Below, in pieces: positions 3,317 to 34,898 of a stretch of 40,869 bases of DNA. The DNA comes from a virus (lineage: Duplodnaviria; Heunggongvirae; Uroviricota; Caudoviricetes). The stretch is taken from IMG/VR virus record IMGVR_UViG_2541047754_000003; one strand, given 5' to 3'. Positions within the stretch are counted from its first letter, which is position 1; every line of letters begins with the position of its first letter. The notes beneath the pieces were generated by a model, which saw nothing but the letters and a program-made list of their open reading frames with translations, ran no database searches and was not told the DNA's origin. The position numbers and the translations under genes are program-made.

Positions 3317-6073
3317 TTAGCTACTTTCAAGCATTGCAAGACGTGATTCTATTTTTTCGATTCTTCTACGCAAATAAGCTGACTCAAGCCATAAACACTG
3401 GTCAGTACGGATACCCCACCTATTTCCAGCCTTGCAAACCAGAGTTCGCTCTTCTGTTTCGTATTCTTCTTCCATCTCAATTTCGACGCCATCCACAACT
3501 TTAGTGATCATCCTTACCGCCATCACTGGCGCGTATTTATCATCCCATTCATCGTAACAGAGAAGGCCAAATCTGGTTCCATCAATCCCATGCGCGAGGA
3601 AAGTGTCTCTCACTTGTTGTGCTATAACACCAAAATGCCAGCGGGCACCATCTCCCTTTTCCCTGACGGCATCAAGCCAGCGAAAAGCTACAATCCTGAT
3701 ATCTCCCCATGCATCCAGAATTGCATCACCTTCATAACCACGAGACATATACAAGCTGAGCTCACTTGTACTAATCGGTTCACTTTTTTCTCTACCATCT
3801 GATGTGTTTATCGAACCGTTCGCAGAATAAACCTGTGCCCATCTAAATGATGGTGCACCAAGAGATTTGCTGTTATCAATAATTGGTGAAAAATTACCTT
3901 TAATGGCAATATTTCCAGAGTCGCCGAATATATTAATAACTGCAGAGTCATCACCATGGTTTTTTACGCTTAAGTTTCTTGATGAAATATTTATATCTTT
4001 GTTATATCCACTAACATTAATCCATCTTTTACCATCAATGTGATACCCGTAAATATTTCCGTCTGATTGTTCGTCAGGTGACTCTCTAAGAACAATAGCA
4101 TCTGCTCCAGACGACCATTGTATTTTTGTATCTGTAGGCCTCCAGTTCTTTATAATGAACGAACCATCAGTAAACTCCGTTTTTATTTGTCTATTGTCTA
4201 CAAATGCGTCTCTTGGTTTAAACTCACTTGTGTTAACGCTGCTCTGAAGATCAGAAGCAAAAAATCTAAGATTTCCTGTATAACCCTGAGTCTCGGTCTG
4301 GTTATACGCAATCATAATTCCATTTTCAAACTCAGATGATGTTATTTTAACATCACGGCAATCACCAAAAATGCAATTTCCTTTATCAAATGTTGTTTGA
4401 GCTTTGAATTTATCAAACCTTAAATTACGAACAGGGAAACCATCAACCTCTAATGCAAAGGATGCAGGAAGGCCAAAGTATTCTGATGGCTTACCTGATG
4501 TATGATCAAGAGTAGTGGCTACTGTATTCTCAAAAACAGTCCCGCTAAAATTATTACCAATTGACGGAAACCTGATTACACTTATTGTACCTTGTATTTC
4601 AGGAGAAATACCAGATAGTGTGATGTTAGCTCCATCAAATGATGCATCTGAATACGTATATACTGATTCACTGCCAGCAATTTTAAACTGTTTAACTGAA
4701 GTTATTCTCATCGACTTTTTATGTTTAAATGTCACTGAGCTTTCAGTATTACTTACAAGATCAATCTGAGGGCTATTCCTTATCGCGATCCCTGACTGGA
4801 CATAAACGTTATTAAAGTGCGTTTTTTCAGGATTTCCCTTCATTGAAAGGCTCCCGTCATTTTCTGTCAGTAGTAGTCCTTTTACCCTCCAATAGCCGAC
4901 AATCTGTACGTTATCAATAACTGAATCACAGCTATCGTATACATGCAACCCTATATCCCAGTTATCACCCAATGAATAAGAATCAGGGTTATTGTATCCT
5001 TCAATACCATTTTTACTTACCATTATTCTCAGATTGCGTAACTGTGATGCCCTGTTGATACTAACAGCTACGCTCATGGCTTTTGGTGTAGCAGGAGTAA
5101 CACCTACAGAATCTTCATTTGTAAACTCAGTGAACTTACAAGATATCCCTTCAACAATTTTAACTGGTCTTTCATTAGAGATGTTAAAAAAATATTTGTT
5201 TTTTTCTCCATCACCAGTAAATACAAGATGGGTTCCTTTACTCCAACTTTTTAATAATCTTTCAGGCGCTGGTCTATATGTATCCCAGTAATCAATTCCA
5301 TCACCAATTAATGAAACTCCAGGAGGCACATCTATATTCTTAGAAATCATCCATTTACCTGCAGGTATTCTAACGACACTTGCACCAGAATTTATCGCAT
5401 TAATTAACCATTCAGACGCATCAACTTCAAAATTTAATGCAGCATATCTTTGCTCAAACGGAACAAAATCAAGAGCGTTAACGTTATCCCGCATCTTATC
5501 CTGGAACGTTCGGTATACTGCTCCAGAACCATACTGAATAAACCAACCAAAACCACCAATAACTCCGGCGATTGCAGCATCGACATAATTACGCATTGAG
5601 CGATTATTTACAGCGTCCTGCTCAAGTGATGGATCAGCAAGGTTAGATATTCTGTTTTGCTTTGCATCGTAATATTTTGCAAGCAAAGATGGTTTCATCA
5701 ATGCACGTCTGAACCACCCAAAACATTGCTGGATCAGCATCGTCAGGTAGTCAAAAGCATCTTCATGCACTTCGGGGAAAAATTTACCCTGATTGCGAAG
5801 GTCTGTCTCCTGCACTACATCAAGCACACGATCTATCGTAATTCGCCATCCAGCAGCAAGCGGAGACGGAAGAACAACAGAACCGCCACTATAAGTGCCC
5901 GCCCCAGTTACCGTATAACCGGTATCCAGAACCAATTCTGTTACGTTCCCGTTCAGGTCAGACACCTGAACAACCAGGTCGGATTTTTTGAAAATACGGA
6001 AGGTATACGGAAATGATGTCGTAGCGCCGTTACCAGTGTATTCGTTGTGGTCAACTTCGGTTGAGACCGTCAT
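3317..6073 (-). CDS. Tailspike: conserved podovirus N-terminal anchor domain, central beta-helix-like enzymatic domain, C-terminal self-cleaving intramolecular chaperone (peptidase S74-like)
   Basis: 918 aa; N-terminus MTVSTEVDHNEYTGNG...; Gly/Asn/Ser-rich repeats typical of beta-helix depolymerases; C-terminal motif S-D-G-R-E-K (Ser/Lys dyad spacing). Confidence 0.85.
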   Translation of the reverse strand: MTVSTEVDHNEYTGNGATTSFPYTFRIFKKSDLVVQVSDLNGNVTELVLDTGYTVTGAGTYSGGSVVLPSPLAAGWRITIDRVLDVVQETDLRNQGKFFPEVHEDAFDYLTMLIQQCFGWFRRALMKPSLLAKYYDAKQNRISNLADPSLEQDAVNNRSMRNYVDAAIAGVIGGFGWFIQYGSGAVYRTFQDKMRDNVNALDFVPFEQRYAALNFEVDASEWLINAINSGASVVRIPAGKWMISKNIDVPPGVSLIGDGIDYWDTYRPAPERLLKSWSKGTHLVFTGDGEKNKYFFNISNERPVKIVEGISCKFTEFTNEDSVGVTPATPKAMSVAVSINRASQLRNLRIMVSKNGIEGYNNPDSYSLGDNWDIGLHVYDSCDSVIDNVQIVGYWRVKGLLLTENDGSLSMKGNPEKTHFNNVYVQSGIAIRNSPQIDLVSNTESSVTFKHKKSMRITSVKQFKIAGSESVYTYSDASFDGANITLSGISPEIQGTISVIRFPSIGNNFSGTVFENTVATTLDHTSGKPSEYFGLPASFALEVDGFPVRNLRFDKFKAQTTFDKGNCIFGDCRDVKITSSEFENGIMIAYNQTETQGYTGNLRFFASDLQSSVNTSEFKPRDAFVDNRQIKTEFTDGSFIIKNWRPTDTKIQWSSGADAIVLRESPDEQSDGNIYGYHIDGKRWINVSGYNKDINISSRNLSVKNHGDDSAVINIFGDSGNIAIKGNFSPIIDNSKSLGAPSFRWAQVYSANGSINTSDGREKSEPISTSELSLYMSRGYEGDAILDAWGDIRIVAFRWLDAVREKGDGARWHFGVIAQQVRDTFLAHGIDGTRFGLLCYDEWDDKYAPVMAVRMITKVVDGVEIEMEEEYETEERTLVCKAGNRWGIRTDQCLWLESAYLRRRIEKIESRLAMLESS

Positions 6074-6229: not shown

Positions 6230-6249
6230 TACTGTATATTTATACAGTT
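6230..6249. promoter_or_regulatory. LexA (SOS) box
   Basis: TACTGTATATTTATACAGTT, 18/20 match to consensus TACTGTATATATATACAGTA with perfect CTGT-N8-ACAG core, about 20 bp upstream of start codon at 6269. Confidence 0.7.
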
Positions 6250-6268: not shown

Positions 6269-6526
6269 ATGCAGCAGTATCACTATCCACTGGAAGACGG
6301 ATTTACCGAAAGGATTCACACGCCGGGAGGCGTCAGGTCACTGGTGGAGGGATCGCACTTGATGAAATTACTCCGGGATCTCGATAAGGATGGATTTAAT
6401 GTCGATGGCCCACTTGCCGAACTGACTGCACTGATTAACTACGTCACCAGCTCACAGATGTCTATGCAGGATCTGCAAACACATCTCGACTATTGTGCCG
6501 AACAATTACGAAAACAAACCCGGTAA
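6269..6526 (+). CDS. Small protein homologous to the C-terminal domain of the neighbouring antirepressor; SOS-regulated antirepressor candidate
   Basis: ATG 6269 with GGAG 8 nt upstream; about 45 percent identity by eye to C-terminus of the 7672-8358 product (shared IH.P.GV..L.E.S.LM.LL..L..DG..V.G..AEL...Y...Q.L.DLQTH..Y). Confidence 0.6.
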   Translation: MQQYHYPLEDGFTERIHTPGGVRSLVEGSHLMKLLRDLDKDGFNVDGPLAELTALINYVTSSQMSMQDLQTHLDYCAEQLRKQTR

Positions 6527-6560
6527 ATTTAAAGGCCGCAAGAGCGGCCTATCGTTTCGC
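6525..6560. terminator. Bidirectional intrinsic terminator between convergent genes
   Basis: Hairpin GGCCGC-AAGA-GCGGCC flanked by AAATTTAAA on one side and T-rich tract on the other. Confidence 0.5.
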
Positions 6561-7277
6561 TTTGTGCTCATCCCAGCACGTTTTGCACCATGCCATTAAG
6601 CCGTCCGCATTTTGATTATTAGGGTAAAAGCTGGTTCGTTTTCTGCGGACATTACAAATTGGGCACCACTTCATATGGCGTGTATTCTTTGGGCCATCGA
6701 GACACCTTGCACACCACTTAGTCAATCCATCTGGATTTTTTGACGATTTCCTGAATTTTTCATATGGAAGGTTTATTCTGCATCGCAAGCACTGCTTGCT
6801 ACCACTTGAAACTCTGTTAGCTGATTCTTCTTTTGGCGGCGATGCAGAAGGTATTCTTGCTGGCTCTGATACTGCCTGAGGTGCTTTTTTAGATGACTGA
6901 GACGATATGTCATCACCAGGGAATCTTCCATGATATGCCGGACGCGTTGACACTCCAGGTGGAAGCTCAGCTGTAAACGGCTTTGGCTGAATCAGTTGCC
7001 TCTCTTTTGCTAACTCCTGCTGTTTATAATATGTCTGGATTACCGCACTATCATAAGCAGGAGGTGCGGAAATATTAGGCGCATTACCTCCAGTTTTTTG
7101 AAACTGAGTAGAGGTGTGTTCTATCACCTGTGTACGATTAATCGTTATCTCCCCATCTTCGGTCTTTATCGTTTTGTTATGATTAACGACCGTACGATCA
7201 GAGATCTTAGTCTTGTTCTGGTTGATAACGTAAATAATCACCGCAACCACACCAACAACTATCCAGAAAACTTCCAT
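6549..7277 (-). CDS. Membrane-anchored protein with two C-terminal Cys4 zinc-ribbon modules; function unknown
   Basis: ATG 7277 with GAGGA RBS; N-terminal TM helix; Pro/Ser-rich linker; two C-x2-C...W-C-x2-C modules. Confidence 0.6.
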   Translation of the reverse strand: MEVFWIVVGVVAVIIYVINQNKTKISDRTVVNHNKTIKTEDGEITINRTQVIEHTSTQFQKTGGNAPNISAPPAYDSAVIQTYYKQQELAKERQLIQPKPFTAELPPGVSTRPAYHGRFPGDDISSQSSKKAPQAVSEPARIPSASPPKEESANRVSSGSKQCLRCRINLPYEKFRKSSKNPDGLTKWCARCLDGPKNTRHMKWCPICNVRRKRTSFYPNNQNADGLMAWCKTCWDEHKAKR

Positions 7278-7518: not shown

Positions 7519-7671
7519 ATGTGTAAAGCGCACCTATTCTATGGTGGGCTGTGTGGGGGCACCGAAAGGTGCGCCGGGTCCTTTGTAGCCGGTTACGCCA
7601 ACCCTGCACAGTTCACCACCAACCGATTGGCGTCGGTAGTGGTGATTAACCTAACTACAAAGGTGATCACT

Positions 7672-8358
7672 ATGACTGCTAACGTAACCCCATCTGTTTT
7701 TCATTTTGAATCAGAGGCAACCATTCGAGCCATTGTTATTGATGGAAATCCTTGGTTTGTTGCCAAAGACGTTATTAAAGCTCTTCAACTGACAAACCCC
7801 ACTATGTCAATAAAATCTCTTGATGATGATGAAAGGGCTAAATTTAACTTAGGCCGTCAAGGCGAAACCAATATTATCAACGAGTCAGGCCTCTACACAC
7901 TGATCCTCCGCTGCCGCGATGCGGTGACACCAGGCACTATCCCCTACCGCTTTCGTAAATGGGTTACAGGTGAGGTTCTTCCTCAGATCCGCCGCACCGG
8001 AAGTTACATTAAAAACTCGCTCCCGCAGGAAGAACGCATAAAGATGGTTGCCGACCAGGTAGCCAACGCCACGGCGTCAGCAGTAATGCAGGCGATGAAG
8101 ATAGAGAACAAAACCTACAGTGCCCCGCTGAAGCCCGGCTACCGCAGCCTGATTCACTCGCCGTCTGGTGTTCTCGGCCTGACGGAGAACTCACTGCTGA
8201 TGAATCTGCTGAACCAGTTACAGGAAGACGGGCACGACGTATCGGGCGCGGCGGCAGAGCTGACCACCATGTTCTGCTACATCGTCGGTGTGAGCAAATG
8301 CCTGCGTGATATCCAGACGCACGCGGAGTACATCAACGACAAAGCAGGATTCTTCTGA
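7672..8358 (+). CDS. ant: Antirepressor (BRO-N-like N-terminal domain plus Ant C-terminal domain)
   Basis: ATG 7672 with AAGGTGA RBS; N-terminal FHFESEATIRAIVIDGNPWFVAKDVIKAL resembles BRO-N antirepressor domain; upstream part of ORF-track ORF is structured leader. Confidence 0.8.
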   Translation: MTANVTPSVFHFESEATIRAIVIDGNPWFVAKDVIKALQLTNPTMSIKSLDDDERAKFNLGRQGETNIINESGLYTLILRCRDAVTPGTIPYRFRKWVTGEVLPQIRRTGSYIKNSLPQEERIKMVADQVANATASAVMQAMKIENKTYSAPLKPGYRSLIHSPSGVLGLTENSLLMNLLNQLQEDGHDVSGAAAELTTMFCYIVGVSKCLRDIQTHAEYINDKAGFF

Positions 8359-8431
8359 CAGAACGGCGGCACATGGATGTGCCTTTAAATAATTCTGTAC
8401 AGATTGCAGACTGTTGGTGAATAGCGTACTA

Positions 8432-8446
8432 TTACCTCAAGGGTAA
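8432..8446. promoter_or_regulatory. Operator palindrome TTACC-N5-GGTAA
   Basis: TTACCTCAAGGGTAA about 60 bp upstream of the 8507 ORF. Confidence 0.6.
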
Positions 8447-8506
8447 ACGGATTGGTTTCATTTTTATTAATCCGTGTAATGAACTTATGAGATATGAGGT
8501 AATGTC

Positions 8507-8686
8507 ATGCGAAACGAAAAATTGCAGATGCGTAGAGCGCAAGCTGCCGCAAGACGTTCTTTCAATGGAAGCGTAGAGTGCGTAAAAGTTACTATGACAA
8601 AAGATCACGCAAGTCGCGTATCCCGCGCTTTCTTTGATTCTCGTAACAATAAGGAAAATTATGAGTTCGTCTGCGTCGCAGAATGA
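8507..8686 (+). CDS. Small ORF (59 aa) overlapping the next gene; candidate antitoxin or partner protein
   Basis: ATG 8507 with GAGGT RBS 6 nt upstream; 26-nt overlap with the 8661 gene; one codon below the ORF-track length cutoff. Confidence 0.4.
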   Translation: MRNEKLQMRRAQAAARRSFNGSVECVKVTMTKDHASRVSRAFFDSRNNKENYEFVCVAE

Positions 8687-9206
8687 TAAAAATCAAATTG
8701 TCAGATATAAGGGTCGAGTATTGCATACGCAAAATTTCTCGGCCCTTTGTGCATCTGATCTTGAGCTGAAGAAAGTATCTGATGCCTTTACCCAGTATTG
8801 GAAAACGGGATACCATCCATCTCTTGGTAAAGATGCTGCATTTGCTCGTCCGACAGAAATGCTTAAACTAAATGTCAGGCATACTCATGTCGATAACCAA
8901 GACTATATTCCAGAAGATAGTGATAAAAAACACACTGGTAAAAAATCATCTTGGGATGCATGGAAAAATATAGCGTCTGTGCAAGTAAAATGCATACCAA
9001 CAAGTGATTGCTTTTTAGTTTATTCGGTAAATCACAATCGTGATGCGCTGGTTATGTTTTTTGTTGACGCAGATGCCCACAACATAACTGAGCAAGAAGA
9101 GTTTAAAGAGGCAGCAATCACTATCAGTTATCAATTCTTTGAGAAAACAAAAACAGAACCAATGCCTTTAGAAGAAGATCTTTTTTCTGATAAATGGAAG
9201 GAATAA
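8661..9206 (+). CDS. Hypothetical protein with YafO-toxin-like motifs (possible ribosome-dependent mRNA interferase)
   Basis: ATG 8661 with AAGGA RBS; motifs D-F-x-Y-W-K-x-G-x-P..GKDA, H-T-H-V and D-C-F-L-V-Y recalled as similar to YafO; not confirmed by search. Confidence 0.5.
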   Translation: MSSSASQNDKNQIVRYKGRVLHTQNFSALCASDLELKKVSDAFTQYWKTGYHPSLGKDAAFARPTEMLKLNVRHTHVDNQDYIPEDSDKKHTGKKSSWDAWKNIASVQVKCIPTSDCFLVYSVNHNRDALVMFFVDADAHNITEQEEFKEAAITISYQFFEKTKTEPMPLEEDLFSDKWKE

Positions 9207-9228
9207 GCCCGCGTTGCGGGCTTTTTTG
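9206..9228 (+). terminator. Rho-independent terminator
   Basis: Stem AGCCCGC/GCGGGCT, loop GTT, followed by TTTTTT. Confidence 0.7.
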
Positions 9229-9262
9229 TGTCTGCGGATTCCCGCCCGGGCGGCGGTGGCAT

Positions 9263-9291
9263 TCGTTAAAAACAAGGCCGCGAAAGCGGCC
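9263..9291 (-). terminator. Rho-independent terminator ending the leftward virion operon segment
   Basis: Hairpin GGCCGC-TTTC-GCGGCC followed by TTGTTTTT on the minus strand. Confidence 0.6.
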
Positions 9292-9292
9292 T

Positions 9293-9304
9293 GTGACATG
9301 TCAC
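9293..9304. repeat. 12-bp perfect palindrome GTGACATGTCAC (copy 1 of 3)
   Basis: Identical copies at 26576-26587 and 28842-28853, all at gene 3-prime ends bordering the late operon. Confidence 0.6.
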
Positions 9305-9311
9305 GCTCACG

Positions 9312-9452
9312 TTATGACAAGCCTATGTACCCTGCTACACCAGATAATATCAAAATAACTGCAACAGCAAATTCGCCATCGTCAATGATACATTTACGGT
9401 TCATAACGCCAAGTGCAACAAGCGCAAACACAACAAGAATAAAAGCAATCAT
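9312..9452 (-). CDS. Small hydrophobic protein (46 aa, two predicted TM helices)
   Basis: ATG 9452 with AGGA RBS (taAGGAtgagaaATG); not in ORF track (below 60 aa); directly follows the 824-aa virion protein gene. Confidence 0.45.
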   Translation of the reverse strand: MIAFILVVFALVALGVMNRKCIIDDGEFAVAVILILSGVAGYIGLS

Positions 9453-9461
9453 TTCTCATCC

Positions 9462-11936
9462 TTATTGCGGAGTGACATCCTGTGGTCGCCACCAGTATGT
9501 CTGGTTAAACTCTTTCTTCGAACGTTGCTCCATTTTACGCAAATAGCCTGGTGAAAAATACTCCTGCATCTGGTTAAAGATCATGTGATCGAGAGCCGCC
9601 TTTAAGTACCAGAGATTCGCACCTGGCATCAAACCTTTCCCCAGCTTCACCAGATCACCACCAGTCTGCTCACTCTTCCCTTCCACAGCATTTAACGGTA
9701 TGCCCTGAGCAATCTTCACTACGTCATCAACCAGACCAGCTACCGGGCCAAGCATCGACGCCAGCGCGCCGCTTCCGTACCTAGTGTGATCTGACAATAA
9801 AAAGTCACCGTAAAGGCCAAGACCACCACCTTTCAGTAGAGCACCAAGCCAAAATTTAGCAGCATCTTCTCCTGTCATCTCGCGAGGATTACGACCAGAC
9901 GCAAGGTCGTTAAGTTGCTGCGACAAAGCGCCAAGAATGGTCGTACTGGCAATAAACGTCGCAATATATGCCGCACGCCCACCAGCAGACGGCATACCCA
10001 TAGCGCGTGACCAGTGACGCATAACTACCGAGATAGGGAACGATTTAAACAGGAAAACACTTCTCGTTAATTCACCTTTCCATGTTCCACGCTGAATACC
10101 AGAACCGGTTATCAGTTGCTCACGTGCTCCCGGTGTAATAACAGCCATATCAACTTCTTCAGTTACGGCACCGAGAAGTTTACGCATTGCCTCAAATTTC
10201 ACGCGTTCAGGCTCACCAAGATGTTTAACTGCTGAATCAGGGATACGCATAATGCTTTCCGGTGTCAGCATCGTATTATTGCCGTTCCCCCAGTCCTCCT
10301 GTTGCGCCAGCTTCCATACGCTCCAGTCTGTTTCAGTAATCCCTTTGCTTTTCAGGATACGAAAATCAGAGTCATCGAGGCTACGAAGGTCTGGTGTCCG
10401 TGACACTACCTCTCCCAGGCTTCCCATCATTGTTACGCCATAGGCGCGCTTGTGCGCATCTGACCATGCTGTAAGCCCACTGGCACGCATTACCGCCGTT
10501 GCCGCCCAACGAGACACAGACGGCCCCATATTATCCATTGCCCAGCGGTTAACACTGCCAAGTAGAGATTCCATCGCCAGACCAGCGCGGCGCGCCCGCG
10601 CAAGCTCAGTACGGTTCGTTGGGTCCATAGCTTCAAGCTGGTTGCGGAATAACTGGTTCATTGGAAGGTTGGTCACCTTCGCAGACAGATACATGGTTCC
10701 AAGATCAGAGAACGATGACAGCAACGCGGATCCTAGTCGGCTGGCAACCAGCCAGTTGCGGATATTGTCAGACCAGCGCGCGATGTGCGGATTCGCTACA
10801 GGCTGTGTCTTTCCGGAAATAAAGTTGTACAGATTCTCTGTGTTGTTCGCCAGCCGCTCGACTTTACCGGTTTTACTCGGGTTAGCTGTTGCCGTTTCTG
10901 CCTTCACCTGATCAAGAAGAGAGCGGAAAACATGATCGGGGTTTGGGCCATATGTTTCCACCAGTGCAATATCTTTACTGATACCTTCCAGGTGACCGAC
11001 CATGATTTCCCATAGAGAGCGATCGCCATAAAGTTGCTGATATTGCAGATAGGAATCTGCATCTTTGAAATGTATCTGTCGTGATGCATTACCCCGGTTA
11101 GCACGTGCGCCGGAAATTCGCATTCCGGTATCAGTAAGCTTATTCAGCCCACCAGTAGCGATCGTGTTATAAGCCTCTCCAAGAAATGCAGACAACTCGG
11201 CATCGTTCATCAGTTGTCCATCGACTCGGGTATAATATTTGCGATCCAGCTTACCTATAACATCGCTAACCCACTTATCCTTTGATACCGCCCCAACCTT
11301 TTCCATAGAATGATGTTGAGGGATCCCCCAGTTTTCGAGATAGCCAATGTCCCCACCAGCATCATTAAACCGGCGGCGCAGTAGCTCTGTCACTTCTCTC
11401 CACGCCTTAGCACCTTTTCTTGCTTTAGCATTGCCAGTATTTTGCCCTCGCATTTCATATACCAGGTCACGCACGCCAGCTTCATCTTCAAACAGGCCAA
11501 AAAAGCGAGGATCAACTGCTTCAAATGCCTCCTGCAATTGACTCAATGCATAATCACGAGTGGCTTTTGTTCTGGATTCAACAGAGAGGAAATTCGATTT
11601 ACCGTCTGCATTAAAAGCAATAGTACGGTTAAGAGCGCCAAGTTTCCCATCAGCCCCTTGATAGCTATTGATAAATTTATCCAATCTCTGACGTGCGGCT
11701 ATAGTGAGAGCCACACGACGTTTCTTTAATGCCGCTTCTCGCTGTAATTCTTCAGATGCCAATTGTGCTGCACGATACAACCGTTCTGATTCGGAAAGTT
11801 GTCGCCACGACATCGGATCATCACGAGCAATGGAGCGCATATTTCGATAAATGCGGTCTTCAATGTTCTGTATTTCTCGCGCCGTTAACGTGCGCTGCGC
11901 CGCCTGCTGGACCGCTTGTATACATTCCTGTCTCAT
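9462..11936 (-). CDS. Large internal virion/ejection protein (824 aa)
   Basis: Long ORF in collinear structural operon after capsid and tail genes, as in podovirus ejection-protein modules. Confidence 0.7.
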   Translation of the reverse strand: MRQECIQAVQQAAQRTLTAREIQNIEDRIYRNMRSIARDDPMSWRQLSESERLYRAAQLASEELQREAALKKRRVALTIAARQRLDKFINSYQGADGKLGALNRTIAFNADGKSNFLSVESRTKATRDYALSQLQEAFEAVDPRFFGLFEDEAGVRDLVYEMRGQNTGNAKARKGAKAWREVTELLRRRFNDAGGDIGYLENWGIPQHHSMEKVGAVSKDKWVSDVIGKLDRKYYTRVDGQLMNDAELSAFLGEAYNTIATGGLNKLTDTGMRISGARANRGNASRQIHFKDADSYLQYQQLYGDRSLWEIMVGHLEGISKDIALVETYGPNPDHVFRSLLDQVKAETATANPSKTGKVERLANNTENLYNFISGKTQPVANPHIARWSDNIRNWLVASRLGSALLSSFSDLGTMYLSAKVTNLPMNQLFRNQLEAMDPTNRTELARARRAGLAMESLLGSVNRWAMDNMGPSVSRWAATAVMRASGLTAWSDAHKRAYGVTMMGSLGEVVSRTPDLRSLDDSDFRILKSKGITETDWSVWKLAQQEDWGNGNNTMLTPESIMRIPDSAVKHLGEPERVKFEAMRKLLGAVTEEVDMAVITPGAREQLITGSGIQRGTWKGELTRSVFLFKSFPISVVMRHWSRAMGMPSAGGRAAYIATFIASTTILGALSQQLNDLASGRNPREMTGEDAAKFWLGALLKGGGLGLYGDFLLSDHTRYGSGALASMLGPVAGLVDDVVKIAQGIPLNAVEGKSEQTGGDLVKLGKGLMPGANLWYLKAALDHMIFNQMQEYFSPGYLRKMEQRSKKEFNQTYWWRPQDVTPQ

Positions 11937-34568: not shown

Positions 34569-34799
34569 TCATGAGTAGAAGAAGTATGCCAGTTCTGCTT
34601 TTGAGCGCAGCCATTGTCTTGTTTTACAGGCTTTAAAAAGCCCATTCATCAATACTTTACCTGGCATTTTGCGCTTACCTGTTAAGTGAGTCTGGATATA
34701 GTGACTCGTCGTTCCGGCTTCCTGTGCGAAGGCTTCACGCTCATCCGGAGTAAGTGCAAGCCAGTGCTTTTTGAAATCGAAATGTCCGTTATCGCTCAT
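34569..34799 (-). CDS. Cro-like HTH regulator (YdaS/Cro family)
   Basis: 76 aa; divergent from repressor gene across operator region; motif LTPDEREAFAQEAGTTSHYIQ resembles Cro/YdaS-type HTH. Confidence 0.7.
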   Translation of the reverse strand: MSDNGHFDFKKHWLALTPDEREAFAQEAGTTSHYIQTHLTGKRKMPGKVLMNGLFKACKTRQWLRSKAELAYFFYS

Positions 34800-34835: not shown

Positions 34836-34898
34836 TCACCCATAAGGTAACAAAAATCAAGGATAGTTACCTATGAGGTGCATTTACCTGTTGGGTAA
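34836..34898. promoter_or_regulatory. Tripartite operator (OR-like) between cro-like and repressor genes
   Basis: TCACCCATAAGGTAA (34836-34850), TTACCTATGAGGTGC (34867-34881), TTACCTGTTGGGTAA (34884-34898); first site lies between candidate -35/-10 of the leftward promoter. Confidence 0.7.

Follow-up and report, generated by a model that had tools for sequence, protein, structure and literature searches.

An overlapping small gene and a long YafO-family gene form a candidate toxin-antitoxin-like cargo cassette in a phiV10/TL-2011b-like prophage of Escherichia coli

The viral record IMGVR_UViG_2541047754_000003, a stretch of 40,869 nucleotides (nt) hereafter called the window, is a phiV10/TL-2011b-like (Uetakevirus) prophage of Escherichia coli; phage TL-2011b matches the segment over its whole length at 98.5% identity. 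We analysed two overlapping genes in its accessory island, encoding proteins of 59 and 181 amino acids (aa), together with the promoter-like region, palindrome and terminator that surround them. A preliminary description of this DNA, made from the letters alone, had read the pair as a possible autonomous type II toxin-antitoxin (TA) or abortive-infection (Abi) module. The features of the locus, by window position, are as follows.

8404–8432, plus strand: promoter-like element of the backbone slot, with a −35 TTGCAG (8404–8409), a 17-nt spacer and a −10 TACTAT (8427–8432), read from the sequence.
8432–8446, no strand assigned: 15-bp palindrome TTACCTCAAGGGTAA (TTACC-N5-GGTAA), directly adjoining the −10 and spanning the point where transcription is predicted to begin.
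8448–9230, plus strand: exchangeable cargo cassette, running from a leader through the 59-aa and 181-aa genes to the terminator and delimited by breakpoints against phage phiv142-3 and a drop in G+C content.
8496–8499, plus strand: Shine-Dalgarno sequence GAGG of the 59-aa gene, 7 nt before the ATG at 8507.
8507–8686, plus strand: 59-aa gene, candidate antitoxin or partner, basic with an isoelectric point (pI) of 9.9; from the list of open reading frames (ORFs), ATG start.
8640–8665, plus strand: predicted mRNA hairpin CUCGUA/UAUGAG (8640–8645/8660–8665), which pairs the toxin start codon and holds AAGGA (8651–8655) in its loop.
8661–9206, plus strand: 181-aa long-form YafO-family gene, candidate endoribonuclease toxin with a predicted RelE/HigB-type fold; ATG start.
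9205–9233, plus strand: Rho-independent terminator closing the cassette, AAGCCCGCGTTGCGGGCTT followed by TTTTGTGTCT.

The two genes overlap by 26 nt (8661–8686) in different frames, and the two-gene arrangement is kept in all relatives. The longer frame is listed as 8634–9206; its conserved start is the ATG at 8661, giving 181 aa, and every homologue begins MSSSASQ. This ATG is preceded at a distance of 5 nt by the Shine-Dalgarno sequence AAGGA (8651–8655), while at the Shine-Dalgarno sequence of the small gene the stretch ATGAGGTGATGTCATG is kept across relatives in an alignment of the upstream region. The terminator hairpin (9205–9223) has an 8-bp stem with six G-C pairs, a 3-nt loop and the T-run TTTTGTGTCT after it. 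Its stem is near-invariant in eight of nine relatives (GCCCGC/GCGGGC in six), with a variable loop and a T-run following; in the ninth (L043) the downstream sequence differs at this position. Terminator-like matches numbered 9 in the scanned region against 2.5 expected from shuffles. Adjacent co-directional genes, one of them homologous to a toxin, that share one promoter-like region and one terminator constitute the layout of a type II TA locus. The 59-aa ORF with its good ribosome-binding site, the 26-nt overlap and the strong terminator had all been proposed in the preliminary description, and each was confirmed at the position given there.

The small ORF behaves as a gene under selection. 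PHROG 6685 matches the protein over 59 of 59 residues (E 1e-44), and there are 13 homologues, mostly 75–95% identical; a scan of one genome per species found no relatives. From 44 viral contigs plus other loci we obtained 28 versions of the pair that differ in DNA sequence. None of the 28 interrupts the small ORF, whose overlap with the toxin gene is 17–26 nt, and dN/dS among versions in the same register is 0.17–0.35, indicating purifying selection. The two alternative frames carry 3–4 stops, with omega values of about 0.6–3.1 that mostly lie near or above 1. Pairwise divergence is correlated between the small protein and the toxin (r = 0.92, Mantel p ~2e-4), so that the two genes show strict co-divergence with no partner swapping inside the clade. 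Relatives can be aligned down to 23–55% identity, and the partner found at locus L059 (~23% identity) shares a clear FY..RND..NYE motif with the 59-aa protein. By these comparative measures the 59-aa ORF is a true gene inherited together with the toxin gene, and selection acts on both. Lack of conservation of the frame in related prophages had been named beforehand as an observation that would count against the proposed pair; the opposite was seen. The alternative, an ORF that arose by chance in the leader preceding the toxin gene, would account for the fact that the NCBI annotation pipeline (PGAP) leaves the ORF unannotated in an identical chromosome; it is effectively refuted by an intact frame in every version, selection confined to that frame with the other two closed, a conserved Shine-Dalgarno sequence and ATG, an end-to-end PHROG match and alignable distant relatives.

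The 181-aa protein is, by profile comparison, a divergent long member of the YafO family. The Pfam profile PF13957 (YafO_toxin) matches it with 25.9 bits against a gathering cut-off of 25.0 (E 1.1e-5, profile positions 3–88 of 101); this was one of the checks suggested in the preliminary description, and the protein falls just above the cut-off. PHROG 1651, of unknown function, also matches (E 5e-51), and searches of NCBIfam, PADLOC and PDB sequences gave no match. A word-indexed search of 5.8 billion sequences returned 27 related protein clusters, and a profile search of 1.84 billion representatives only 70 sequences below E 1e-3. The weaker profile matches are proteins of 131–150 aa; the nine that were aligned all match PF13957, with a best E of 5e-29. 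Profile-profile comparison (hhalign) of the long family (A1) with these nine canonical YafO proteins (A3) gave 99.7% probability (E 2e-25, 127 columns); A3 was drawn from A1's own matches, and the comparison therefore shows connectedness, not independent discovery, with the Pfam matches of A3 being independent. The alignment retains the motifs GK/RD..RP, RHxH, SD..LVY and AH. The earlier reading of the motifs as YafO-like thus holds at the level of family assignment.

Across 23 family members G56, R63, P64, H74, H76, Y121, A139 and H140 are invariant, and K57, R73, S115 and L119 are at least 90% conserved. The long form differs from canonical YafO in an N-terminal extension, an insertion of ~35 residues (78–112) and a conserved C-terminal tail with the motif MPL-E-DLF-DKW, in which M168, L170, E172, L174, F175 and W179 are invariant. 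It is therefore not a compact, basic toxin of ~130 aa: at 181 aa and pI 6.0 it contrasts with the 131–135 aa and pI 8.6–9.3 of canonical members. A RelE/HigB-like (BECR) fold is predicted, and a Foldseek search with the structural model also pointed toward a RelE/HigB-type fold, without significance. PF13957 is listed among the BECR-fold toxins that cleave mRNA and follow an antitoxin-then-toxin gene order (PMC11980606). Toxins of the YafO type are described as cleaving mRNA and arresting translation (PMC8546651, PMC11980606), and the ribosome dependence of YafO is disputed (PMC8546651). By analogy with these proteins, the 181-aa protein would be a toxic ribonuclease (RNase).

The pair sits in an accessory island bounded by the tailspike gene (3317–6073, minus strand) and an 824-aa structural gene (9462–11936, minus strand). 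The island contains an 85-aa gene, an opposite-strand gene for a 242-aa zinc-ribbon protein, a Bro-N/anti-repressor-like gene (7669–8358), the 59-/181-aa pair and a 46-aa membrane-protein gene. Close relatives phiv142-3 and phiV10 lack the cassette. In blastn comparison with phiv142-3, homology ends exactly at 8447 and is full again from 9231; inside the cassette the sole alignment covers 51 nt of the terminator region (9180–9230, 84% identity). G+C content falls from 0.52–0.56 in the flank to 0.35–0.41 in the cassette. The cassette (8448–9230) is 100% identical in the chromosome of E. coli 85.0412 (NZ_CP122448.1), and 61 of 5426 complete E. coli genomes carry it complete. Sequence comparison thus identifies 8448–9230, and only this segment, as mobile cargo plugged into a backbone promoter/operator slot of the variable island. 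The earlier description of the unit as cargo of a prophage accessory island agrees with the phiv142-3 breakpoints and the lower G+C.

Several observations concern the surroundings of the cassette. TL-2011b and many relatives carry an extra segment of ~190 bp, which encodes a 'putative transmembrane anchored protein', is inserted exactly at 9230/9231 and is absent from the window. Between the cassette and the structural operon the window keeps a 46-aa hydrophobic minus-strand ORF (9231–9305 and 9312–9452 region; hypothetical in RefSeq) and a minus-strand terminator at 9292–9275. Two relatives, L010 (3680–4631, minus strand) and L041 (~3600–4560, minus strand), encode a second YafO-like protein, 28–31% identical to that of the window, with a larger upstream partner of up to ~150 aa ending in ...MS.E...S.RM..RT.E.M..E.YDDAE. 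This paralogue occupies the slot on the other strand where the window has its 242-aa gene (6549–7277, minus strand), whose product has two zinc-ribbon (Stc1/HNH-like) motifs and belongs to PHROG 6762. At L059 (5085–5681), in another bacterial chromosome, the long-YafO pair adjoins a gene with an OspG-kinase domain (PF22303) and a Bro-N gene in a tailspike-adjacent island, a neighbourhood that shows how varied the cargo of such islands is.

The small gene and the opening 43 codons of the toxin gene (8507–8790) show unusually strong conservation at synonymous sites. Among degenerate codons of conserved residues, 28 of 53 are invariant in this segment, compared with 11 of 80 further along the toxin gene, and dS of the small gene is 2–7 times below that of the toxin gene at similar dN. 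The pairs of the predicted hairpin at the toxin start codon are kept in 7–9 of nine relatives in a consensus fold, with no compensatory changes. Other predicted hairpins involve the start codon of the small gene (8502–8511/8548–8557) and a 10-bp stem at 8710–8719/8739–8748. A conserved mRNA structure as such was set aside, given an unfavourable covariation term (+1.62) and a single-sequence z-score of only −1.97; known RNA families gave no match at the cassette. Because the toxin start lies in a predicted hairpin and inside the upstream coding region, translation of the two genes is probably coupled; through the hairpin, synthesis of the toxin may depend on that of the small protein.

Small upstream partners recur across the wider long-YafO clade. 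Each distant long-YafO gene examined has a same-strand ORF of 55–113 aa just upstream, and each lies on a mobile element, nearly always a phage:

L047 and L050: partner of 63 aa with an 8-nt overlap, in siphovirus tail modules.
L051: partner of 62 aa, in a myovirus baseplate module.
L052: partner of 69 aa.
L053/L054 and L059: podovirus tailspike regions.
L060: partner of 69 aa; the pair occupies the interval from the portal gene to gpA in a P2-like phage.
L061 and an Acinetobacter plasmid: partners of 57 and 73 aa.
Klebsiella phage-plasmid: partner of 113 aa, beside a Bro-N gene.

Further contexts of long-YafO pairs are plasmids and short contigs. The P2-like gpA–gpQ interval in which L060 lies is a documented hotspot of anti-phage systems (PMC9122126); this one relative is the sole association with defence, an instance of guilt by association. 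No Pfam domains were found in the distant partners. Deep homology among partners had been suggested by a pattern drawn by eye, [VIM]-[TS]-x4-[AS]-x2-[IVM]-S-x2-[MF] with an acidic C-terminus; it failed both hhalign and a jackknife hidden Markov model (HMM) of the small partners run against all window ORFs, and we make no claim of partner homology beyond the clade.

These results bear on whether the small protein is an antitoxin at all. The 181-aa protein might be a real toxin and the 59-aa protein something else, such as a nucleic-acid-binding regulator or the product of a moron, with the toxin restrained by other means or harmless to the host. Such a reading would fit a small protein that lacks an antitoxin domain and does not significantly resemble the partners found in distant relatives. 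The restraint could then come from the acidic C-terminal tail that the clade carries itself, or from mRNA structure, to which the synonymous-site conservation and the predicted hairpins over both start codons could point. Yet every lineage examined has a small ORF upstream of the toxin gene, co-divergence within the clade is strict and without swapping, and the genes overlap, so that their translation is probably coupled. At L044 (5233–5924) an apparent frameshift cuts the toxin to 112 aa and leaves the small gene intact; this may be real decay or a sequencing error, and is the direction of decay expected of a TA pair. We regard a non-antitoxin partner as rather improbable.

Transcription of the cassette would start in the backbone. 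The element at 8404–8432 scores below the scan threshold (7 of 12 matches), but its geometry recurs in eight divergent relatives (TTGCAG, TTGACG or TTGCAA, 17 nt, then TAATAT or similar), and we treat it as a putative promoter. In front of the cassette, all Uetakevirus-like relatives (nine divergent relatives aligned) keep the adjoining palindrome without change. The motif TTACC-N5-GGTAA occurs at 15 sites in the window with at most one mismatch, 10 of them perfect, against a mean of 0.6 and a maximum of 3 in shuffled sequence. The sites (15 bp each) begin at 2949, 6178, 7298, 7391, 8432, 25538, 28731, 28749, 32491, 32553, 34499, 34836, 34884, 35596 and 35658. Nearly all are intergenic and promoter-like. 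Copies lie upstream of the 85-aa, 242-aa, Bro-N and terminase small-subunit genes and beside replication genes; two (35596 and 35658) flank the promoter of the early recET operon. Three adjacent copies (34836, 34867–34881 with 2 mismatches, and 34884) separate the divergent cro-like (34569–34799) and repressor (34954–35538) genes, the latter encoding a 194-aa protein with an HTH_3 domain. Its recurrence at most promoter regions, with three copies separating the cro-like gene from the repressor gene, makes the motif the probable operator of the prophage repressor; Cro may use it as well. It is unannotated in phiV10, and in the literature searched we found neither a published description of it nor work on phiV10 or epsilon15 operators.

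The preliminary description had given the cassette an operator of its own, and here it has to be corrected: the palindrome belongs to the backbone. Occurring at no fewer than 14 other sites in the phage and at the same slot of the cassette-free phiv142-3, it is not specific to this operon, and it is absent from related pairs in phages outside Uetakevirus. Other candidates for control elements were also considered. An inner repeat (8444–8453/8469–8478) was rejected as a cassette-specific operator; relatives do not conserve it, and the stretch in which it falls is prone to indels. A 9-bp repeat (8431–8439/8495–8503), through which the left half of the palindrome would pair with the Shine-Dalgarno region, was discarded as well, the left arm being probably untranscribed if transcription starts after the −10. 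LexA control was rejected: no CTGT-N8-ACAG site occurs between 7565 and 9479, and the sole good box nearby serves another gene.

That box, the near-consensus TACTGTATATTTATACAGT at 6230–6248, lies 20 nt upstream of the 85-aa gene (6269–6526, plus strand). The 85-aa product and the C-terminal domain of the Bro-N/anti-repressor-like protein (7669–8358) share 40% identity (E 8e-16), which makes the gene a candidate SOS-controlled small anti-repressor. An anti-repressor under SOS control would fit a repressor in which Pfam found only helix-turn-helix (HTH) domains and no peptidase (self-cleavage) domain.

The position of the palindrome could point to a different role for the pair, as part of the lytic programme: the 181-aa protein would be an RNase made after derepression that cuts host or phage mRNAs, as phage-encoded endoribonucleases do, to shut off the host or process transcripts, with the 59-aa protein as a cofactor, an RNA-binding specificity subunit or a timing inhibitor. 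A palindrome lies at the start site here as it does at the Bro-N gene and at the early operon promoters next to the repressor. The very basic partner and mildly acidic RNase are unlike usual TA pairs, and the contexts of long-YafO genes are nearly all phage genomes, often within structural modules. However, the order of an overlapping small gene and then a toxin is the classical type II TA layout, and the absence of the cassette from phiv142-3 and phiV10 makes it dispensable, which argues against a core lytic function. One relative also occupies the P2 hotspot of anti-phage systems. On balance, a dedicated lytic RNase seems to us unlikely.

We therefore favour, with reasonable but not strong confidence, the reading of the cassette as a type II TA-like pair. 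One mRNA would encode both proteins, the small one being translated first and translation of the toxin being coupled to that of the small gene. The 59-aa protein would bind and neutralise a YafO/RelE-type RNase; were the partner lost or outnumbered, the YafO-like protein would cleave mRNA and stop translation. With transcription from the backbone promoter and the repressor presumably binding the palindrome, expression would follow the lysis-lysogeny switch rather than classical TA autoregulation alone. Such a pair would probably serve in competition with other phages, in abortive infection, or in shutting off host mRNA once repression is lifted.

Several findings weigh against a TA-like pair. 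For the small protein, searches of Pfam, NCBIfam, PADLOC and PDB sequences gave no match to an antitoxin or DNA-binding family (Phd/YefM, ribbon-helix-helix (RHH) or HTH). Its AlphaFold2 model (helix 2–18, strand 25–31, helix 32–38, strand 51–57) has low confidence, with a predicted local distance difference test (pLDDT) score of 57.5; an RHH or HTH nature, rejected as a candidate, is unsupported by Pfam, the PDB sequence search or this model. The protein has an arginine-rich N-terminal helix, and the charges of the pair are reversed relative to a typical RNase TA pair, the toxin having a pI of 6.0 and the partner 9.9. Partners of the distant relatives are not detectably homologous to it (hhalign probability 1.6%; jackknife HMM rank 4, E 2.9). 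On the toxin side, the PF13957 score is marginal, and the AlphaFold2 model is mediocre (mean pLDDT 62), with residues 75–116 unmodelled. Neither protein matched a model of a known or candidate defence protein in PADLOC-DB 2.0 at E up to 1. Should the palindrome be an operator of the repressor, the lysogen may keep the cassette silent, a poor fit with constitutive defence or addiction. The literature searched contained no experimental work on TL-2011b gp44/gp45 or on phage YafO-like pairs.

Of the autonomous type II TA or Abi module originally proposed, the YafO-family assignment, the gene order, the real small gene and the promoter-to-terminator cargo unit are supported; the operator is not its own, and neither protein matches a PADLOC model. 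A more speculative reading, to which we give little credence, joins these threads differently. Long-YafO proteins and their small partners would form a distinct, almost exclusively phage-borne RNase clade, wired in Uetakevirus to the repressor through TTACC-N5-GGTAA, silent in the lysogen and fired by induction or by the anti-repressor of a superinfecting phage titrating the repressor, as a host shut-off or suicide switch and not as a classical TA that regulates itself. The reversed charges, the synonymous constraint and the start-codon hairpins would then reflect another mode of control.

Part of this locus is already annotated. RefSeq names gp44 of TL-2011b a 'type II toxin-antitoxin system YafO family toxin' and gp45 a 59-aa hypothetical protein. 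The PGAP annotation of NZ_CP122448.1 includes the 181-aa toxin and omits the small ORF, which bears out the earlier remark that the ORF had been missed, even though RefSeq lists it for TL-2011b. The toxin call is thus known from RefSeq and PGAP labels in TL-2011b and the 61 complete E. coli genomes; in most of these genomes the toxin is apparently labelled with its partner left unannotated, so that it looks like an 'orphan'. What is new is that the small gene is validated, that long YafO proteins are recognised as a clade carried by phages together with small partners of no known class, and that the exact limits of the cargo and the phage-wide distribution of the palindrome are established. 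If the TA-like reading is true, the small proteins would represent a new partner (antitoxin) family for YafO-type toxins that annotation pipelines skip, the long-YafO clade would be one found repeatedly in the cargo slots of prophages resembling podo-, sipho- and myoviruses and in a P2 defence hotspot, and the toxin module would be driven from a promoter bearing the prophage's own operator. Such a promoter bears on when prophage toxins are expressed, and hence on defence, addiction or lytic shut-off. This would be an incremental extension of a well-known class and leaves current understanding standing.

Among known systems, YafN-YafO of E. coli K-12 (dinB-yafNOP) is the nearest comparison. The toxins are homologous through PF13957, with the shared motifs GR/KD..RP, HxH, SD..LVY and AH and a RelE-like fold (predicted here); in both, a small partner gene precedes the toxin gene in one operon, and the expected activity is cleavage of mRNA. 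YafO has ~132 aa and is basic, whereas the cassette toxin, with its extension, insertion and tail, has 181 aa and is mildly acidic. YafN is an antitoxin of the Phd/YefM type, unlike the basic 59-aa partner, which has no PF02604 match. YafN-YafO is chromosomal and under SOS (LexA) control; the cassette is phage-borne and has the phage-wide palindrome instead of a LexA box. HigB2, HigB and RelE toxins, ribosome-dependent mRNA endonucleases of the RelE/ParE (BECR-fold) superfamily, have only 4–16% sequence identity to the 181-aa protein, which has no Pfam HigB or RelE match, and HigB systems place the toxin gene first, in contrast to the small gene that comes first here.

Repressor operators scattered over a temperate phage genome are known from the C1 operators of P1 and the stoperators of mycobacteriophage L5. 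The prophage in the window likewise has one short operator-like motif at many promoter regions, including those of accessory genes; here it is a symmetric 15-bp palindrome, and its binding by the 194-aa HTH repressor is suggested by the positions of sites around the repressor gene. Defence cargo of the P2 gpA–gpQ hotspot (old, tin and others; PMC9122126) differs from the cassette, which has no PADLOC match and a promoter that looks repressor-controlled rather than constitutive. Like that cargo, the cassette is self-contained and exchangeable and occupies a variable slot in the genome of a temperate phage, and the P2 hotspot itself, between the portal gene and gpA, holds a member of the long-YafO clade with its own small upstream gene.

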